The position numbers and the translations under genes are program-made. From the IMG/VR virus record IMGVR_UViG_2737471636_000001, positions 1-64,000 of that record: 64,000 nucleotides of DNA; one strand, given 5' to 3'. This document shows, one piece after another, positions 8,012 through 64,000 of the stretch. Position 1 is the stretch's first letter. Every line of letters begins with the position of its first letter. Under the pieces are notes generated by a model, which worked only from the letters and a program-made list of their open reading frames with translations, was not told where the DNA came from and did no database searches. This DNA is from a virus. Taxonomy: Duplodnaviria; Caudoviricetes.

Positions 8012-8302
8012 TTACAAACCCGGAACCTGAATGCCTTGACCGGCAACCTCGATTACCAGATCAAGTCGATCAGGGGGTGTTTGCACGCTGTATAAATTGA
8101 CTGATCCGTCAGGAATGGACTGCAGCACCGGCACATCAACACGCAGTTTCTGCAACACAGCCTCTGGCTCACCGCTCGAAAGAGGGTTTTGCAAGAGAGC
8201 TTTGATGTCCTGACCATAATCAGAGCCAAGGTACCCATTGACCGGTGTTTTTAGCCAATGCGAAACCATGTCTTGAATGTTGTTGCCAGTGATAGTAGCC
8301 AT
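8012..8302 (-). CDS. Baseplate gp25-like (P1 gp26-like) protein
   Basis: HWLKTPVNGYLGSDYG motif. Confidence 0.7.
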   Translation of the reverse strand: MATITGNNIQDMVSHWLKTPVNGYLGSDYGQDIKALLQNPLSSGEPEAVLQKLRVDVPVLQSIPDGSVNLYSVQTPPDRLDLVIEVAGQGIQVPGL

Positions 8303-8308
8303 GCATCA

Positions 8309-8348
8309 ATATTAATGATGCTGATTACCGCTTTATGGCTGGTTTTCC
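8309..8348 (-). promoter_or_regulatory. Putative late promoter GGAAAA-N28-TAATAT
   Basis: One of 8 copies of the motif at fixed spacing upstream of structural operons. Confidence 0.7.
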
Positions 8349-8385
8349 TGAAATTGAAGTTATCAGGGGGAATTGGGGGTATTGG

Positions 8386-8802
8386 TTATTTTTGCTCGGG
8401 TGTTTCCATGTCAATATCGAAAAGCGTCCAGAATTCTCCGCTCTCTCCATCAAGCATGAACTGGTTGCTGTGAATCATCTGTGATTTTAGATATTCAGTG
8501 CGGAATTCATCGGCCATAATCAAGGTTTCGATATCAGAATCGCCGTGATAAGCCTGTTTTATGAGGGGATCGGACTGATCCCCAAGGGAATACCCGTTTG
8601 CGTTTATAACATCTTTGAGAGCCCACCAGTAAGGACCATAATCCCGATATCTCAGCCGGTCTTTACTCAGTCTTTCGGCAATCACGCCTAAACCGAAGGC
8701 TAACAGGTTAGAGAATCCACGGTTAGTCACCAAACCTTTCTTGCGCTCATGGATAATGTCGCTGATAACATCTTTATCAAATAAATATTCAGTGAAATTC
8801 AT
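8386..8802 (-). CDS. ulx: Ulx-like protein (P1 antirestriction/DarB packaging factor)
   Basis: RYRDYGPYW matches recalled P1 Ulx YRSYGPYW; immediately downstream of darB as in P1. Confidence 0.75.
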   Translation of the reverse strand: MNFTEYLFDKDVISDIIHERKKGLVTNRGFSNLLAFGLGVIAERLSKDRLRYRDYGPYWWALKDVINANGYSLGDQSDPLIKQAYHGDSDIETLIMADEFRTEYLKSQMIHSNQFMLDGESGEFWTLFDIDMETPEQK

Positions 8803-25248: not shown

Positions 25249-25286
25249 GGTAAGCCGTCCGCAGAGTAATATTTGGGTGGTTTTCC
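25247..25286 (-). promoter_or_regulatory. Putative late promoter GGAAAA-N28-TACCAT for the darA operon
   Basis: Shared motif and spacing. Confidence 0.7.
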
Positions 25287-25300
25287 GGTTAGAGATTTAC

Positions 25301-25330
25301 TTGACAATATATCTTTATTGATATATCTAT
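25301..25330 (+). promoter_or_regulatory. hicAB promoter with palindromic operator ATATATC-N6-GATATAT
   Basis: TTGACA at 25301 followed directly by the palindrome. Confidence 0.6.
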
Positions 25331-25335
25331 ACATA

Positions 25336-25521
25336 ATGAACGGTAAACAAGTTATTAAGAAACTGCAAGCGGAAGGATGGATACTCGAAAGAGTGAATGG
25401 GAGTCATCACATCCTACGCAAAGGTAATGTGTCAGTTACCGTTCCCGTTCACGGAACGAAGGACCTAAAAAAAGGAACTTTTTCATCAATCATGAAAGAA
25501 ACCGGAGTGAGATTGAAATGA
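25336..25521 (+). CDS. hicA: HicA-family toxin
   Basis: GW.LERVNGSHH..VTVPVHG.KDLKKGT..I.K..G. Confidence 0.9.
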   Translation: MNGKQVIKKLQAEGWILERVNGSHHILRKGNVSVTVPVHGTKDLKKGTFSSIMKETGVRLK

Positions 25522-25934
25522 ATACGCTTTTTCCTGCAATATTTACGCCTGAAGAACCATCGGGATTTTCTGTTCAATTCGTAGACATACCGGGCGCAAT
25601 CACTGAAGGCGAGACCATAGAAGAATGCTTGTTCAACGCTGCTGAAGCATTGAGCGGAGTTATTGAATCTTATATTAAGAATGGCCAAGAAATTCCTCGC
25701 CCATCAAAAAACGTCAAGGATGCTTATTACATCGCGCCAGATGTGAAAATACAGTCTGCCCTGCTGATTAGGTGGGCTCGTGGTGACAAATCTCTTGCTG
25801 AGATTGCGAGAGTGCTTGAGACATCCTGGCCAGCCGCGCAACGATTGGAAAACCCTAATCACTGGGCAACCCTTAAACAGCTTGATAAAGCCGCCGCAGC
25901 ACTAGGCAAAAAATTGGTGCTTTCTTTGGAATAA
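25518..25934 (+). CDS. hicB: HicB-family antitoxin with C-terminal HTH
   Basis: FSVQFVDIPGAITEGETIEE; ATGA overlap with hicA. Confidence 0.9.
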   Translation: MNTLFPAIFTPEEPSGFSVQFVDIPGAITEGETIEECLFNAAEALSGVIESYIKNGQEIPRPSKNVKDAYYIAPDVKIQSALLIRWARGDKSLAEIARVLETSWPAAQRLENPNHWATLKQLDKAAAALGKKLVLSLE

Positions 25935-42550: not shown

Positions 42551-43405
42551 TTACCTCATGAACTTGTTAATTAACCGTCCAAACGTAGGATTAACTTGCT
42601 GTTCACTGACTTCCTCTTCGACCGGCTCTTCAAACTCAGGTAATTTTTCTATCGAGTGAAAATAATCACGGTCTTTTTGCAATGCGCTGATGGGATTGAT
42701 ATCTACTGTTAACGGTGCCATCGTCACGGAATCTAGGATTGAGTTAGCGTCGATGCTCTTACTGGCAAGCATCGACAGGAACTGCTCGTTCTCCGCTTGT
42801 AGTCTCTCGATTACCGCGCTGGTAGCTTCGCGCTCAATTTTGATGCTATCCAGCAAGACGATCAATGAACGCGCATGCTCTTCCTGTTCGGCTGCGTACA
42901 CATCGTCATAGGTAAGATCGCCGGTATTGCCGCTCAAGGCGTCATCAAACGCCACGCCCCTGAATGAATTATCAAGAAAATTAGGCTGCAGAACGTAATC
43001 GAAACCATAGAATTGCGGTCTCTTTTCATCGATGGCCGATGAGAATCCGCCCACTTTCTGAAAAAATAGTTTCTCTGCGACCTGCCCTGCTGCGGTATCA
43101 AGGAACTCCGCTTGATGCTCTACCATGCCGTCCATTGTTACTTTGAGGTGAGTGGTTATGAATGCCGGTTGCACTGGAACGTACTTACCGCCATCTAAAC
43201 CTCCCTCAGACGGATGCATTCCGAACCGGATTCTAGGGAAGTGACCGTAATATCCAATCATCCCTCTGGAATTAACGGTTTCCTGGCACGCACCCCCATT
43301 AACGCTATCGAAAATCTTCTGGATATTGAAGTTACGCGACTGACCGGTATATTTGCGGCCTCGTTCTTTAAGTGAATATCTGATCATGGGCGTGGTAGTT
43401 GGCAT
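42551..43405 (-). CDS. Prohead protease (P1 Pro-like)
   Basis: GYYGH, GGFSSA, GFDYVLQPNF catalytic-type motifs. Confidence 0.8.
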   Translation of the reverse strand: MPTTTPMIRYSLKERGRKYTGQSRNFNIQKIFDSVNGGACQETVNSRGMIGYYGHFPRIRFGMHPSEGGLDGGKYVPVQPAFITTHLKVTMDGMVEHQAEFLDTAAGQVAEKLFFQKVGGFSSAIDEKRPQFYGFDYVLQPNFLDNSFRGVAFDDALSGNTGDLTYDDVYAAEQEEHARSLIVLLDSIKIEREATSAVIERLQAENEQFLSMLASKSIDANSILDSVTMAPLTVDINPISALQKDRDYFHSIEKLPEFEEPVEEEVSEQQVNPTFGRLINKFMR

Positions 43406-60144: not shown

Positions 60145-60607
60145 TGAATGAGTTGTAAAGCTGAGTTGTTATTTGCATCAGGTGCAAAAGTAAGGGTCTC
60201 AATTTTTGACGCTCACTTGCATCAAAATGAAAATCTTGTGCGGCATCGCTGCCTTCTTTTAGTAGCGTGGAAGTGCTGGCAACCAAGGATAGGAAAGTTT
60301 TTACCTGACATTTTGGTTCGGTTTGTTCCAGCGACAGATCCACATCAATGGTTGCCTGACCGATTAAGTAAGCCAGTGAAAAAATAGTGGCTTTGGCCTG
60401 GCAATGAATAATGATTTCTAAAAGGACAGAAAAAGAAGGCGGTAATGCTTCATGATCCGGATTCAAATGATTGGCAAGTGTTGTTGGATTCATTCCCAGC
60501 ACACCTGCCAACGCGGTAATTCCGCCAGGAAATTTCTTGGCATCAGCTTGCAAAGACAGAAACAATGATCTGTAAATCTGCTTTGTTAATCTAGATGAAT
60601 GTCTCAT
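60137..60607 (-). CDS. Phage regulatory CII-family protein
   Basis: PGGITALA..LGMNPTTLAN.LNP motif; follows cro. Confidence 0.75.
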   Translation of the reverse strand: MRHSSRLTKQIYRSLFLSLQADAKKFPGGITALAGVLGMNPTTLANHLNPDHEALPPSFSVLLEIIIHCQAKATIFSLAYLIGQATIDVDLSLEQTEPKCQVKTFLSLVASTSTLLKEGSDAAQDFHFDASERQKLRPLLLHLMQITTQLYNSFNE

Positions 60608-60677
60608 AAAGCGAAACCTCTTGACGTTTCGTCTAGCTGATCATTTTTAGGATATGGATAATGAGCGGCATGAATAT

Positions 60678-60920
60678 TCATGCCGCTTTTTCTGATTTTG
60701 GTTCATCGATTGGGTAAATGCTGGGGCTCAATCTATGCCGAGTTACCCTGCAAGAAGTAGCTTTTTCTATTGGAATTACAAAGTCAGGGTTGATAACACC
60801 ATGCCTAAGCCAGTAACTAATGTTTTGCTGTTTAGTTCCTATAGCTTCGGCCAGCAAGGTCTGAGAACCCAGGATATGAATGGCCTCCAACAATGCAGAT
60901 TGCTGTATTTTATTTTTCAT
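60678..60920 (-). CDS. cro: Cro/YdaS-like HTH regulator
   Basis: GSQTLLAEAIGTKQQNISYW..IEKAT..VTRHRL.P.IY. Confidence 0.85.
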   Translation of the reverse strand: MKNKIQQSALLEAIHILGSQTLLAEAIGTKQQNISYWLRHGVINPDFVIPIEKATSCRVTRHRLSPSIYPIDEPKSEKAA

Positions 60921-60947
60921 TTTTAAAATTGTATGACTGAATCGTTT

Positions 60948-61007
60948 ACAAGTCTATTTGTAGCAGATAACAAAGAGACTTGTCAACAACAATACAAATT
61001 TATTTGT
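60948..61007. promoter_or_regulatory. Three operators ACAA-N6-TTGT (60948-60961, 60970-60983, 60994-61007) with divergent promoters
   Basis: Three exact half-site palindromes between cro and cI; TTGACA on the minus strand at 60981-60986. Confidence 0.85.
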
Positions 61008-61019
61008 ATCATTTCCAAT

Positions 61020-61472
61020 ATGAAAGAAGAATTTTCAACCTACCGAGGAAGATTGAATTGGGCGCTTAAAAAGGCGGGAATGAGTCAGACTGATCTGGCC
61101 AAGCTTTGCGGCTTGAAACCACAGGCTGTTCAATATTTGTGCGATCAAAAAAATAATGCTCAAGGAAGTATTCATAACGCGAAATTTGCTCATCACTTAA
61201 AGGTATCAGCGCTATGGTTAGAGGCAAATATGGGAGAGCCTTTAACTGAGGACAGATTAAAGGAAGTTGAGAAAGAACTGGAAAAAACTAAAGAAGACCT
61301 TAATAAAACAATAGATACGGTAAGGTCATGGGGGGTTGAGGATATTAATTCTGTAGATGTTGAATTATCAGAGATATTTAGCAGCGCTTACAAAGTGAGA
61401 GTTGAGGATAGACCTCATGTCACCAAAATCGTTAAGACTTTTATTAGAAAACCAAGAAAGGCAGAAGGATAG
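61020..61472 (+). CDS. CI-like repressor (HTH only, no S24 peptidase domain)
   Basis: RLNWALKKAGMSQTDLAKLCG..LKVSALWL; divergent from cro; ATG 61020 lies 7 nt after TATCAT with no SD (possibly leaderless). Confidence 0.8.
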   Translation: MKEEFSTYRGRLNWALKKAGMSQTDLAKLCGLKPQAVQYLCDQKNNAQGSIHNAKFAHHLKVSALWLEANMGEPLTEDRLKEVEKELEKTKEDLNKTIDTVRSWGVEDINSVDVELSEIFSSAYKVRVEDRPHVTKIVKTFIRKPRKAEG

Positions 61473-61589
61473 ATACGATTCAGAAGGAAATATTAGAAAT
61501 ATAAGTGATCGATGCGAATTTTATCGATGTAAATGCAAAACAGGATGAACACTTAAGAACTTCGATCCCGATTTTAATTTTGTAAAGAT

Positions 61590-61699
61590 AAATGCGCCGT
61601 TTAGGTGAAGTGCAGTTTTGACTTAACCCAGTTATCCAGTGAACTCCATGACACATAGATAACTGGAAGATTCGGAAAACATTGGGGGGCTCCGAATCT
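61590..61699 (-). ncRNA. Putative sRNA copy A (terminator degenerate)
   Basis: Hairpins AGATTCGGA/TCCGAATCT and CCAGTTATC/GATAACTGG; box at 61733-61748; only one arm of the GCGCATTT terminator remains. Confidence 0.6.
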
Positions 61700-61754
61700 T
61701 CTTTTATTATTTATTAAATTAATAAATTAGTTTGTTCGATAGTTAACAGTGAAG

Positions 61755-61885
61755 AAAAAAGCGCATCCACAAAAGTAAATGCGCTTTCATCAAGGAGAAA
61801 ATTGAAATGAAAACCCGGTTATTACTGAGAGTATGGGCTCAGAAATAACCGGAAGATTCCAAGTTTATTGAGAAACATAGAATCT
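61755..61885 (-). ncRNA. Putative sRNA copy B (~131 nt)
   Basis: AGATTC/GAATCT hairpin, CCGGTTATT/AATAACCGG hairpin, AAGCGCAT..ATGCGCTTTTTT terminator; box at 61919-61934. Confidence 0.75.
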
Positions 61886-61940
61886 GGAAAAATAATGCCT
61901 AATTCATTTAAATTTTTATGTTCGGTGTCTAACGTTAAAT

Positions 61941-62072
61941 AAAAAAAGCGCATCTACAAAAAGTAAATGCGCTTAAAGCCTCGAGAATTATGAAACCCGG
62001 TTAATCTCAATGTGCCCTAATGAGTACAACAATAACCGGGAGATTCAATGCTGATTGAGAGACACCGAATCT
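61941..62072 (-). ncRNA. Putative sRNA copy C (~132 nt)
   Basis: Same three-hairpin layout; box at 62106-62121. Confidence 0.75.
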
Positions 62073-62124
62073 ATTAAAATAATGACTGATTTGGTTTGAT
62101 ACGTATGTTCGATTTCTAACTTAT

Positions 62125-62232
62125 AAAAAAAGCGCATTCCCAGGGAAGAACGCGCTTAAAGTGCAGAAACACGATCCGGCTATAACGGAATAAGAAATAG
62201 CCGTAGATTTAGGAACAGGAGTAACTAAATCT
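62125..62232 (-). ncRNA. Putative sRNA copy D (~108 nt)
   Basis: AGATTTAG/CTAAATCT, CGGCTAT/ATAGCCG and terminator hairpins; box at 62266-62281. Confidence 0.75.
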
Positions 62233-62284
62233 AATTTAAATTTATTAGAAAATTGATCCCTCTTCTGTTCATTTCCTAACAGAA

Positions 62285-62431
62285 ATGAATTTTTTAAGAT
62301 GGGTCTATACAGCAATCTCTTATATAGCTGCTGGCTGGACTGCAATTACTTGGATTTTTGGCAAGAAGAAACGCAGCATTATAAAGAAAGCGCGTTTCTT
62401 AAAATGGGGATCAAGAAACGCGCTTAAATGA
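62285..62431 (+). CDS. Possible 48-aa membrane peptide (type I toxin-like)
   Basis: MNFLRWVYTAISYIAAGWTAITWIFGKKKRSIIKKARFLKWGSRNALK; hydrophobic then basic; no SD. Confidence 0.35.
   Translation: MNFLRWVYTAISYIAAGWTAITWIFGKKKRSIIKKARFLKWGSRNALK
62383..62425 (-). terminator. Intrinsic terminator of a sixth, divergent minus-strand transcript
   Basis: Perfect 13-bp stem AAGCGCGTTTCTT/AAGAAACGCGCTT followed by TCTTT. Confidence 0.65.
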
Positions 62432-62597
62432 CAACCTCTTGAGGTAGATTGAAGGGCCATTCACAATATACTCCCTCCAATGTGAATATTTTGTGATAAT
62501 AAAACACATACTTTAGATAAATAATATATTCATAAATCTGCCATTGTTGCAGATCAATACTAATAATTTGTAAAAATATCCAGGGTGTTGAGAAAAC

Positions 62598-62718
62598 AAA
62601 AAAAGCGCACCCACCTGGAGTAAATGCGCTTAAAGTGCATGAACAACATAACCGGCTATTTACTGGCTTAAGGAAATAGCCGGAGATTTAGCAAAAGCCT
62701 ACGGGAGTTACTAAATCT
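62598..62718 (-). ncRNA. Putative sRNA copy E (~121 nt)
   Basis: AGATTTAG/CTAAATCT, CCGGCTATTT/AAATAGCCGG and terminator hairpins; box at 62752-62767. Confidence 0.75.
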
Positions 62719-62789
62719 GTGAAGATGATCGCTCACTTTCAGTCGTTATTCTGTACGGTTTGTAACAAAACTTATATTAATAATTCCAA

Positions 62790-64000
62790 ATGGCCCGCTC
62801 AATCGCCCTCATCGATGTCAATAACTTCTATGTAAGTTGCGAGAGAGTTTTTAATCCAAAGCTCGAAGATGTGCCGGTTGTGGTGTTATCCAATAACGAT
62901 GGCTGCGCCGTCGCCAGAAGCAATGAAGTAAAAGCTCTTGGTGTAAAAATGGGCCAACCGTGGTTTCAGCTAAAAGATCTTGCCAAAAAACATGGAATCA
63001 TAGCCTACTCATCCAATTACACGCTATACGCCGATATGAGCGACCGGGTAATGAGCATACTATCGGAATATAGCCCCAACCAAGAAATCTATTCGATCGA
63101 TGAATGCTTTTTGGATCTTACTGGATTCCAGGAGCATACCAATTATGGGCAAAGCATCAGGCAGAGAATCAAACAATGGACTGGATTGCCGGTTTGCGTC
63201 GGAATTGGTGGTACCAAGACACTTTCTAAACTGGCCAATCATGTTGCAAAGAAAAATGCTAACTTTAACGGTGTCTGCGATCTGAATGCTTTTTCCCCTG
63301 CCCTGCATGATGAATGGTTGAGCCGTATTGAAGTAGGTGAAGTTTGGGGAATCGGCAGAAAACTTGCACCCAAACTGAATAAACACGGAATTAAAACTGT
63401 CCTGGATTTGAAAAATTCCAATTCAAAACGTCTCAGGGAGGAATTCAGCGTGGTTATGGAAAAAACTATCCGTGAATTGAATGGTGTGCCCTGCATCGAA
63501 CTGGAAGAAATCTCGCCACCCAAGAAGCAGATCATCAGCTCAAGATCGTTTGGTATAACGGTAAAAGATCTCAAGAGCCTGGAACAATCAGTATCCTCTC
63601 ACATTGCCAAAGCTGCAGAAAAATTACGCCAGCAACAATCATATGCCGGTTCGGTACATGTATTCATCACCACAAGCCGGTTCAATAAGCCAGAAGAGAA
63701 CTATCACAACACCTATAAGATCAAGCTTCCAACGCAATCGGCCGATACTATTTTACTCACCAAAGCGGCGTTGTGGGGGTTGCACAAGATCTATCGAAGC
63801 GGATACAAATACAACAAAGCCGGAGTAATGCTCTCGGATTTTGTAACTAATGAGAATCGTCAGAACGATATGTTCGGTCTTAGATTGGAGGATGGTAAAT
63901 CAAAACGTTTAATGAAAGTAATGGATCAAATTAACGCTAGAATGGGCAAGGGAACTATTAAGTTAGCTTCGGAAGGCACTGATCAGCATTGGAATATGAA
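62790..64000 (+). CDS. umuC: Y-family DNA polymerase V subunit UmuC (runs off window end)
   Basis: [46 protein letters not shown]; absent from the ORF track because no stop lies in the window. Confidence 0.95.

Follow-up and report, generated by a model that had tools for sequence, protein, structure and literature searches.

The repeat array

We analysed a window of 64,000 nucleotides (nt), positions 1 to 64,000 of the IMG/VR virus record IMGVR_UViG_2737471636_000001, which is 89 kb long in full. Near the right end of the window, between a cI-like repressor gene and umuC, lie five diverged repeat units, A to E, that have the look of small RNA (sRNA) genes. A sequence-only reading of this DNA had placed five minus-strand units here, and all five are present. 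They are listed below with their bit scores under R1, a covariance model built from the five units, their fold z-scores against dinucleotide shuffles, and the coordinates of their orthologs in a second provirus, L063 (also L119 and G001):

61575-62767, minus: array of five units A-E, predicted 5′ ends at 61699, 61885, 62072, 62232 and 62718
61575..61699, minus: unit A RNA, terminator truncated; R1 79.1 bits; z -2.8; L063 ortholog 8057-8190
61754..61885, minus: unit B RNA, 132 nt; R1 118.1 bits; z -7.9; L063 ortholog 8245-8376
61941..62072, minus: unit C RNA, 132 nt; R1 119.4 bits; z -5.1; L063 ortholog 8431-8562
62125..62232, minus: unit D RNA, 108 nt; R1 86.5 bits; z -6.4; L063 ortholog 8622-8730
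62598..62718, minus: unit E RNA, 121 nt, with terminator and U7; R1 95.9 bits; -41.6 kcal/mol, z -5.1; no L063 ortholog
61706..61748, minus: putative unit A promoter; box 61733-61748, -10-like AATAAT 61706-61711
61892..61934, minus: putative unit B promoter; box 61919-61934, -10-like CATTAT 61892-61897
62079..62121, minus: putative unit C promoter; box 62106-62121, -10-like CATTAT 62079-62084
62239..62281, minus: putative unit D promoter; box 62266-62281 (12/13), -10-like TAAATT 62239-62244
62725..62767, minus: putative unit E promoter; box 62752-62767 (11/13), -10-like GATCAT 62725-62730

Each unit begins with AGATT and consists of hairpin 1, hairpin 2, an A/U-rich linker and an intrinsic terminator, a common layout that had been proposed before and on which a MAFFT alignment and the folds agree. 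In that alignment the mean column identity of the five units is 63-64%, with no variation in the 5′ AGATT, in the AATCT that closes hairpin 1, in the GCGC stem of the terminator or in parts of hairpin 2. Tandem Repeats Finder did not detect the array because the copies are too diverged. The G+C content of the array region is 34-39%, compared with 41-49% in the adjoining phage genes. The consensus CCRGYTAT...ATARCYGG that the sequence-only reading gave for hairpin 2 fails for the 3′ arm in unit C, which is TTAACCGG, and for the 5′ arm in unit D, from which the first C is missing. Loops and linkers had been called all different, which did not stand. A run of 5-6 pyrimidines occupies the same aligned place in the hairpin-1 loops of all five units (CCCCCC, TTTCTC, TCTCTC, CTCCT and CTCCC), and the linkers of D and E have GCACTTTAAGCGC in common. 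The linker of unit B and the terminator loops of units D and E are CU-rich too. The reverse complement of the unit B linker does read AAGGAG-N9-ATG, as had been noticed. No open reading frame (ORF) is common to this array and its ortholog in L063, in keeping with the earlier statement that none is conserved; a small ORF of 13 codons, lying on the plus strand across from unit B and behind AAGGAG, does not recur in the other units.

Units B-E fold individually into hairpin 1, hairpin 2 and terminator, and unit A into the two hairpins. A simple terminator scan gave matches for units C, D and E, the terminator of unit B is visible in its fold, and a tail of U6-U7 stands behind the terminator stem in units B-E. 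In 5/5 units the better fold is that of the minus-strand RNA, G-U pairs favour the minus strand, and U tracts lie 3′ of the stems on that strand only. The consensus fold of the five copies holds 33 pairs, 9 of them with double changes; compensatory change in the stems, as reported earlier, is seen. Building a covariance model and checking covariation had been suggested at the same time. R1 scores units A-E at 79-119 bits and everything else in the 89-kb record at 45 bits or less, the highest being a truncated unit C at the edge of locus L117 (44.7 bits); plus-strand echoes reach at most 33 bits. When the four L063 units are added, 88.3% of cells pair in the nine, against 30-48% with partners slid. 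Both sides have changed in 12/33 pairs, and 0/500 shuffles reach the observed pairing values; in this set hairpin 2 is partly misaligned by one column in D and E. Five helix 1 pairs never vary, and AGATT and AATCT are invariant in 9/9 units.

The terminator of unit A had been described as degenerate. Its stem is complete in the L063 ortholog, and the two sequences part inside the stem here, so by this comparison it is truncated by a rearrangement and not degenerate. A transcript of unit A would continue past it in the direction of the cI 3′ end. Moreover, one DNA run contains a variant that skips 61674-61929 (joint 61673>61930), an A/B recombinant, as well as a variant that skips 62499-62804 (joint 62498>62805) and has no unit E, as in L063. 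On the evidence of these variants, the copy number of the array changes by unit-level recombination.

Promoter geometry, relatives and known families

A 16-bp dyad box with the consensus TGTTAG-N4-CGAACA lies upstream of every unit. The dyad is imperfect, with the right half better conserved and the left half-site TGT in 3/5 units. From the end of the box to AGATT there are exactly 33 nt in 5/5 units, the sequence between being not conserved; in L063 the same spacing is found in 3/4 units and is 35 nt in the fourth, the unit C ortholog. The -10-like hexamers lie at -12 to -7 from AGATT. If the A of AGATT is taken as the predicted start, the box is centred at about -41.5, in place of a -35 element, a position that resembles the site spacing of the CRP family (class II, CRP/FNR-type geometry). 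This geometry points to a promoter needing an activator that overlaps -35. The earlier proposal that the units are individually promoted is borne out at the level of sequence, with box, -10 and predicted +1 at fixed spacing.

On the plus strand of the record the box recurs with a -10 at the same distance, in a cargo island beyond the window end:

66488-72040 of the record (L117 4488-10040), plus: five protein genes behind box and -10, at 66488, 66777, 69504, 70501 and 71989

Two of these genes encode small proline-rich proteins, one encodes a KGG-repeat stress protein (Pfam KGG, E 4e-13), and the products of the other two belong to a set of five small acidic paralogs with no Pfam match. The predicted starts are 16-42 nt 5′ of the start codons, most of which stand behind a Shine-Dalgarno-like purine run, and the box 5′ of the KGG gene is conserved in L063. 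A strict promoter pattern gave 7 matches here and 5 in L063, with 0 in the reversed control of both and 0 in G002 (a third provirus, also L120) and G003; the match at 42858, in the structural region, is probably due to chance. Use of the same promoter architecture by protein genes is the best argument for transcription of the units from the predicted points. The CII-like protein of the record is unlikely to bind the box, since the third provirus lacks the box even though its CII is 99% identical. Two plus-strand sigma-70-like sites (TTGAGA-17-AATAAT, 10/12) lie inside units B and C, at 61868-61896 and 62055-62083. They are the complement of the hairpin-1 loop plus the minus-strand -10 region, and may be chance occurrences in AT-rich DNA.

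Relatives of the units were found with R1 in one other IMG/VR provirus, L063, which has four (orthologs of A-D, 82-113 bits). Its array is again beside umuC, with terminators in 4/4 units compared with 4/5 here. The third provirus, L120, encodes a UmuC that is 96% identical and is without array, island and box promoters; there umuC is directly followed by a terminator-bearing element (described below) and a PEP-CTERM gene. Judging from L120, which lacks all three, the array, the box promoters and the island travel together. A pattern scan of viral contigs gave 95 stretches, 80 of which were scored as loci with R1; these 80 held no true unit besides those of L063. Only this same second provirus was recovered among 19 UmuC-anchored viral loci and among loci anchored on a MEDS-like protein or on a small paralog. 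In species-representative genomes, 19 pattern stretches were found, none with E<=1 under R1, and the best of 45 from JGI metagenome contigs scored 23 bits. A box-anchored pattern gave 12 stretches, with 11 single-match loci outside the R1 scoring. These searches for relatives may omit records near this genome. No match to the array was obtained by blastn ('distant') against phage (50,697 records) and plasmid records. Part of the stretch was present in 20 of the 24 rows of public runs listed, from 15 studies; the best independent DNA runs hold 36-66% of the sampled words and come from soil, freshwater, groundwater and biofilter metagenomes and two coded organisms.

Identity between the two arrays is 93%. 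Their RNA bodies differ at 23/470 positions (4.9%) and their promoter spacers at 19/109 (17.4%; Fisher p 4e-5), with 4/64 differences in the box. Paired and unpaired RNA positions differ between the arrays at similar rates (4.8% vs 5.1%), and each paralog keeps its own loops and linker in the second provirus. There is therefore no sign, in this pair of arrays, of fast retargeting of loops and linkers.

The sequence-only reading recognised neither a CRISPR array nor a known RNA family, and our searches agree, Rfam and Tandem Repeats Finder both being negative. Rfam 15 gave 0 matches at gathering thresholds over the whole window. At E<=10 on 61300-62900 there were 18 matches, all sub-threshold, and LhrC was not among them. 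The best were to the trpB motif (RF04312), in three units, with 33.8, 29.8 and 24.4 bits against a gathering threshold of 59. This motif is described as a 5′-UTR riboswitch candidate of Firmicutes and Fusobacteria (PMC11109978). Like the units it has a hairpin, then a linker and an intrinsic terminator; however, the units precede the promoter of the next unit and no gene, and they match only this generic hairpin and terminator shape. A C4-like prophage RNA, as in Acinetobacter, was set aside, there being no C4 match at E<=10 and the UmuC relatives pointing elsewhere. ARAGORN found 0 tRNA/tmRNA genes in 60500-64000. The units are not CRISPR repeats, being 108-132 nt long and diverged, each with promoter and terminator, with no near-identical short repeats. 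Type III toxin-antitoxin (ToxI-like) RNAs consist of short tandem repeats without promoters of their own, directly upstream of a toxin gene; here every unit comes with a promoter and terminator of its own, and behind the units the minus strand has no ORF.

Neighbouring genes and side elements

Three further features frame the array:

60933..61472, plus: cI-like repressor gene, convergent with the array; HTH_3 22.1 bits against a 23-bit cut-off
62383..62487, minus: 'sixth' terminator-bearing element, between units D and E; R1 22.1 bits, E 0.14; terminator found by scan
62790..64000 and on beyond the window end, plus: umuC, Y-family polymerase of 424 amino acids (aa), divergent from unit E

Over half its length the cI-like protein shares 35-38% identity with CI/C2 repressors, and its gene is flanked by a Cro-like gene of the YdaS family and a CII (CP76) gene. 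The array had been placed in the accessory slot that lambdoid phages have after cI; a cI-like gene does adjoin it, and the array points against cI. Only 12 bp separate the start of the longest cI-like ORF from the Cro-like gene (60921-61019). The annotated start is probably too early, since an internal ATG about 29 codons in, probably the true start, would leave a 100-bp operator region. On the other side, none of the three related proviruses has a umuD upstream of its umuC, which stands alone (here at L117 790-2064). Beyond it lie about 10 kb of plus-strand cargo, including the KGG gene, an SRAP (SOS-response-associated) peptidase gene 6.7 kb beyond umuC, a sub-threshold MEDS/KaiC-like protein and the small paralogs; a PD-(D/E)XK nuclease gene lies 3′ of this island. 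With its 89-kb record the phage is a large one, and its portal-like protein has its nearest relative (58%) in a Xanthomonas phage, with a distant relation to the portals of P1 and D6. Among plasmid relatives of UmuC, the best (56-58%) are those of Sulfuricella and Nitrosospira, and together with the habitats of the runs they hint at a Nitrosomonadales-like host.

On its R1 score the 'sixth' element is not a member of the unit family. A purine-rich loop tops its 5′ hairpin, a second, small hairpin and a terminator stem of 13 bp (AAGCGCG type) complete it, and it is kept beside umuC in all three proviruses (L063 8885-9000, L120 3860-3975). It is non-coding, since a one-base indel shifts every frame between copies. 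Also between units D and E is a plus-strand ORF of 48 aa (62285-62431) with a hydrophobic stretch and a basic cluster, which looks like the leftover C-terminal anchor of a PEP-CTERM protein. A full PEP-CTERM gene, of 228 aa, ends at the same terminator in L120, and another is found at 7646-8056 in L063, on the other side of the array. From these full genes, the A-D block appears to sit where a second PEP-CTERM gene once was.

Interpretation of the array

We interpret the array, with a probability of about 0.55, as five paralogous, separately transcribed and co-regulated sibling sRNA genes, carried as prophage cargo and belonging to a family absent from Rfam. Its repeat structure, folds, strand, fixed promoter geometry and conservation are observed in the sequence. 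The mechanism would begin with an activator that overlaps -35 and binds the box at about -41.5, with the -10 at -12 to -7 and no -35 element. The same type of promoter stands in front of five island protein genes, so that the RNAs would be turned on along with the proteins. The predicted products are RNAs of 108-132 nt with two 5′ hairpins, an A/U-rich linker and a terminator with a U tail. By analogy with known sRNAs, the pyrimidine loop of hairpin 1, in some copies with the linker or the terminator loop, may pair with purine-rich ribosome-binding regions of host mRNAs. Such pairing would block translation, and the variable flanks would give the siblings overlapping but different sets of targets. 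The sequence-only reading had proposed a bank of scaffold-plus-guide RNAs; with the pyrimidine run that they have in common, the hairpin-1 loops resemble one shared seed of the anti-Shine-Dalgarno type, flanked by variable sequence, more than variable guides.

Sibling sRNAs are favoured because the layout matches LhrC. In Listeria monocytogenes, LhrC1-5 are five homologues about 110 nt long that are transcribed from promoters of their own and all depend on one regulator (PMC4132741). Their CU-rich sites, which lie in the loop of a hairpin, in the terminator loop and in a single-stranded stretch, bind the ribosome-binding region of lapB and block it. The likeness extends to five copies, own promoters, one regulator acting via a conserved upstream element, and CU-rich sites. 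However, the LhrC copies are called 'almost identical' whereas ours are diverged; LhrC is chromosomal in a Gram-positive host and the array is prophage cargo; and the regulator element of LhrC lies upstream of -53, compared with about -41.5 here. LhrC and the units have no sequence relation. Prophage sRNAs of the Hfq type are represented by the Pas family of pathogenic E. coli, which has a 3′ terminator stem-loop and several variants or copies that are uneven between strains, the copies reportedly being distant and derived from repeated infection, not tandem duplication (bioRxiv 10.64898/2026.05.13.724894; see also PMC8550237). On that account Pas resembles the array in being sRNA genes of temperate phages with a 3′ terminator and multiple variants per genome; it differs in its dispersed copies, as against five adjacent ones with one promoter type, and there is no DNA similarity, the blastn search of the phage records having given no match. 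Hfq-dependent sRNAs bind Hfq and have an intrinsic terminator with a U tail, and of these traits a U6-U7 tail is seen in units B-E. Several homologous promoter-to-terminator units, as expected of multicopy base-pairing sRNAs, are present as predicted from sequence, five here and four in L063. The pair NgncR_162/163 reportedly lie next to each other, with three stem-loops, and are said to pair with ribosome-binding regions. They are sibling sRNAs of Neisseria, a betaproteobacterium (PMC9973317), and they differ from the array in being two chromosomal copies as opposed to five prophage copies. A literature search found no relevant report of a Nitrosomonas prophage sRNA or of tandem prophage sibling sRNAs. 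The family is absent from Rfam, from the phage and plasmid records searched and from the literature found; its kind, multicopy sibling sRNAs and prophage sRNAs, is known. Prophage sRNAs are, to our knowledge, known almost only from enterobacteria.

Several results weigh against an array of sibling sRNAs. Evidence of transcription comes from three RNA libraries of three studies, in which small parts of the stretch are covered by strandless contigs at a depth of 2-5 and DNA carry-over is possible; stretches without cover were not counted as evidence. One identical contig of 201 nt (61487-61687) has its upper end 12 nt within unit A, counted from the predicted start, passes the truncated terminator and ends 15 nt from the cI stop, and it is the only contig that fits a start near a predicted +1. 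The contigs of X17 (61694-61834 and 62069-62356) and X19 (62455-62692) come from relatives and cross terminators and promoters. Discrete transcripts are not proven, because these contigs are ambiguous. No CRP-family domain that could serve as the supposed activator was found encoded in the record. Covariation is supportive and not conclusive, since it is thin, with nine related sequences from two loci. Between orthologs, 13 pairs have changed, 7 of which still pair, one of them, in hairpin 2 of unit B, by a double change from AU to GC, and the other 6 are broken in the minimum free energy structure. The hairpin-1 loops had been called CU-rich and anti-Shine-Dalgarno-like. Their pyrimidine run is indeed found in 5/5 units; CUCC is present in only 2/5 loops, a weak anti-Shine-Dalgarno core.

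The outcome of a target search within the provirus also speaks against it. The sequence-only reading had suggested a search of the loops and linkers against phage translation starts, and within the 89-kb provirus, the only sequence covered, no complementarity above chance emerged. The longest perfect complement of a loop or linker in the rest of the record is 12 nt, and in duplex energy against 281 translation-start regions, 9/10 segments were no better than shuffles. The tenth, the linker of unit B, would pair with the start region of a HicB-like gene at 25518 at -25.2 kcal/mol (shuffled mean -19.2, minimum -25.3, 1/30 as good). As ten segments were tested, this pairing is a lead only. The HicB-like protein (138 aa) forms a pair with a HicA-like one (82 aa), both named by eye, at 25273-25934 on the plus strand, opposite in strand to the structural block around them.

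The RNAs could act differently, as scaffolds, guides or decoys for a protein, the second option of the sequence-only reading, with the invariant stem bases (AGAUU/AAUCU, CCGG-type) as its handle and the variable apices giving specificity. The stem bases are in fact conserved in sequence and not just in pairing (AGATT/AATCT in 9/9 units and five helix 1 pairs fixed), the apices and linkers differ between paralogs and are each kept in the second provirus, and the array is inherited together with uncharacterised small proteins under the same promoter type. We nevertheless think this unlikely. No RNA-binding, nuclease or guide-dependent effector family was recognised among 20 neighbouring proteins scanned, no match of the variable parts was found within the provirus, the invariant 5′ AGATT may just be the start region of the promoter, and the common pyrimidine run fits ordinary seed pairing. 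We would give similarly little credence to an action in cis, in which, through transcriptional interference or antisense pairing, five convergent promoters and their RNAs oppose plus-strand transcription that comes from the cI side, crosses the array and enters umuC and the island, unit A adding antisense read-through towards the 3′ end of cI. Such an action would suit a locus in which no plus-strand terminator was found from the cI stop to umuC, in which the cargo genes to either side all lie on the plus strand, and in which umuC has only about 70 nt upstream before unit E and no clear Shine-Dalgarno or promoter of its own. The missing terminator of unit A, with the RNA contig from 61687 to 61487 that stops 15 nt short of cI, would also agree with it, as would the X17 and X19 contigs, which cross unit boundaries as a long plus-strand transcript would. 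However, those contigs carry no strand information, the provirus that lacks the array keeps the same umuC, and the conserved hairpins, the terminator of each unit and the five diverged copies would be left unexplained. Both the scaffold and the cis action still need the units to be transcribed.

This is not so for a DNA-level repeat or decaying duplication without RNA function, such as stacked protein-binding inverted repeats or recombination leftovers. Such an origin would account for a unit number that varies (E missing in L063, and the joints 61673>61930 and 62498>62805), for the truncation of unit A and for the very narrow distribution of the family. We regard it as the least probable of the explanations, in that G-U pairs favour one strand in 5/5 units and U tracts occur there only, the inter-arm length of hairpin 1 varies over 16-23 nt, which is unusual for protein-binding sites, the RNA bodies are better conserved than the promoter spacers, and the promoter geometry is common to real protein genes.

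A bolder reading, and a long shot in our estimate, is that array and island form a self-contained, horizontally mobile regulon. In this regulon a single factor that recognises the box would fire five diversified RNAs and five small proteins. The RNAs would be programmable binders, with the constant pair of hairpins as a handle and apices specific to each paralog, that work with an uncharacterised small protein of the island and silence chosen messages of the host or of rival phages in stress. If true, this would be a phage-borne RNA-guided module of a new type and not a set of ordinary sibling sRNAs, and the interest of the array would be much higher if its RNAs do act with an island protein. 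Five sibling sRNA genes would themselves constitute a new sRNA family from an environmental, low-GC proteobacterial host, unusual for its five-fold tandem arrangement and for a promoter type in common with an island of stress-type genes. Given its five diverged copies lying together, a well-delimited common promoter that stress-type cargo genes also have, and natural variants with four, five or no copies, the array may offer a compact system for the rewiring of host translation and the diversification of sibling sRNAs.

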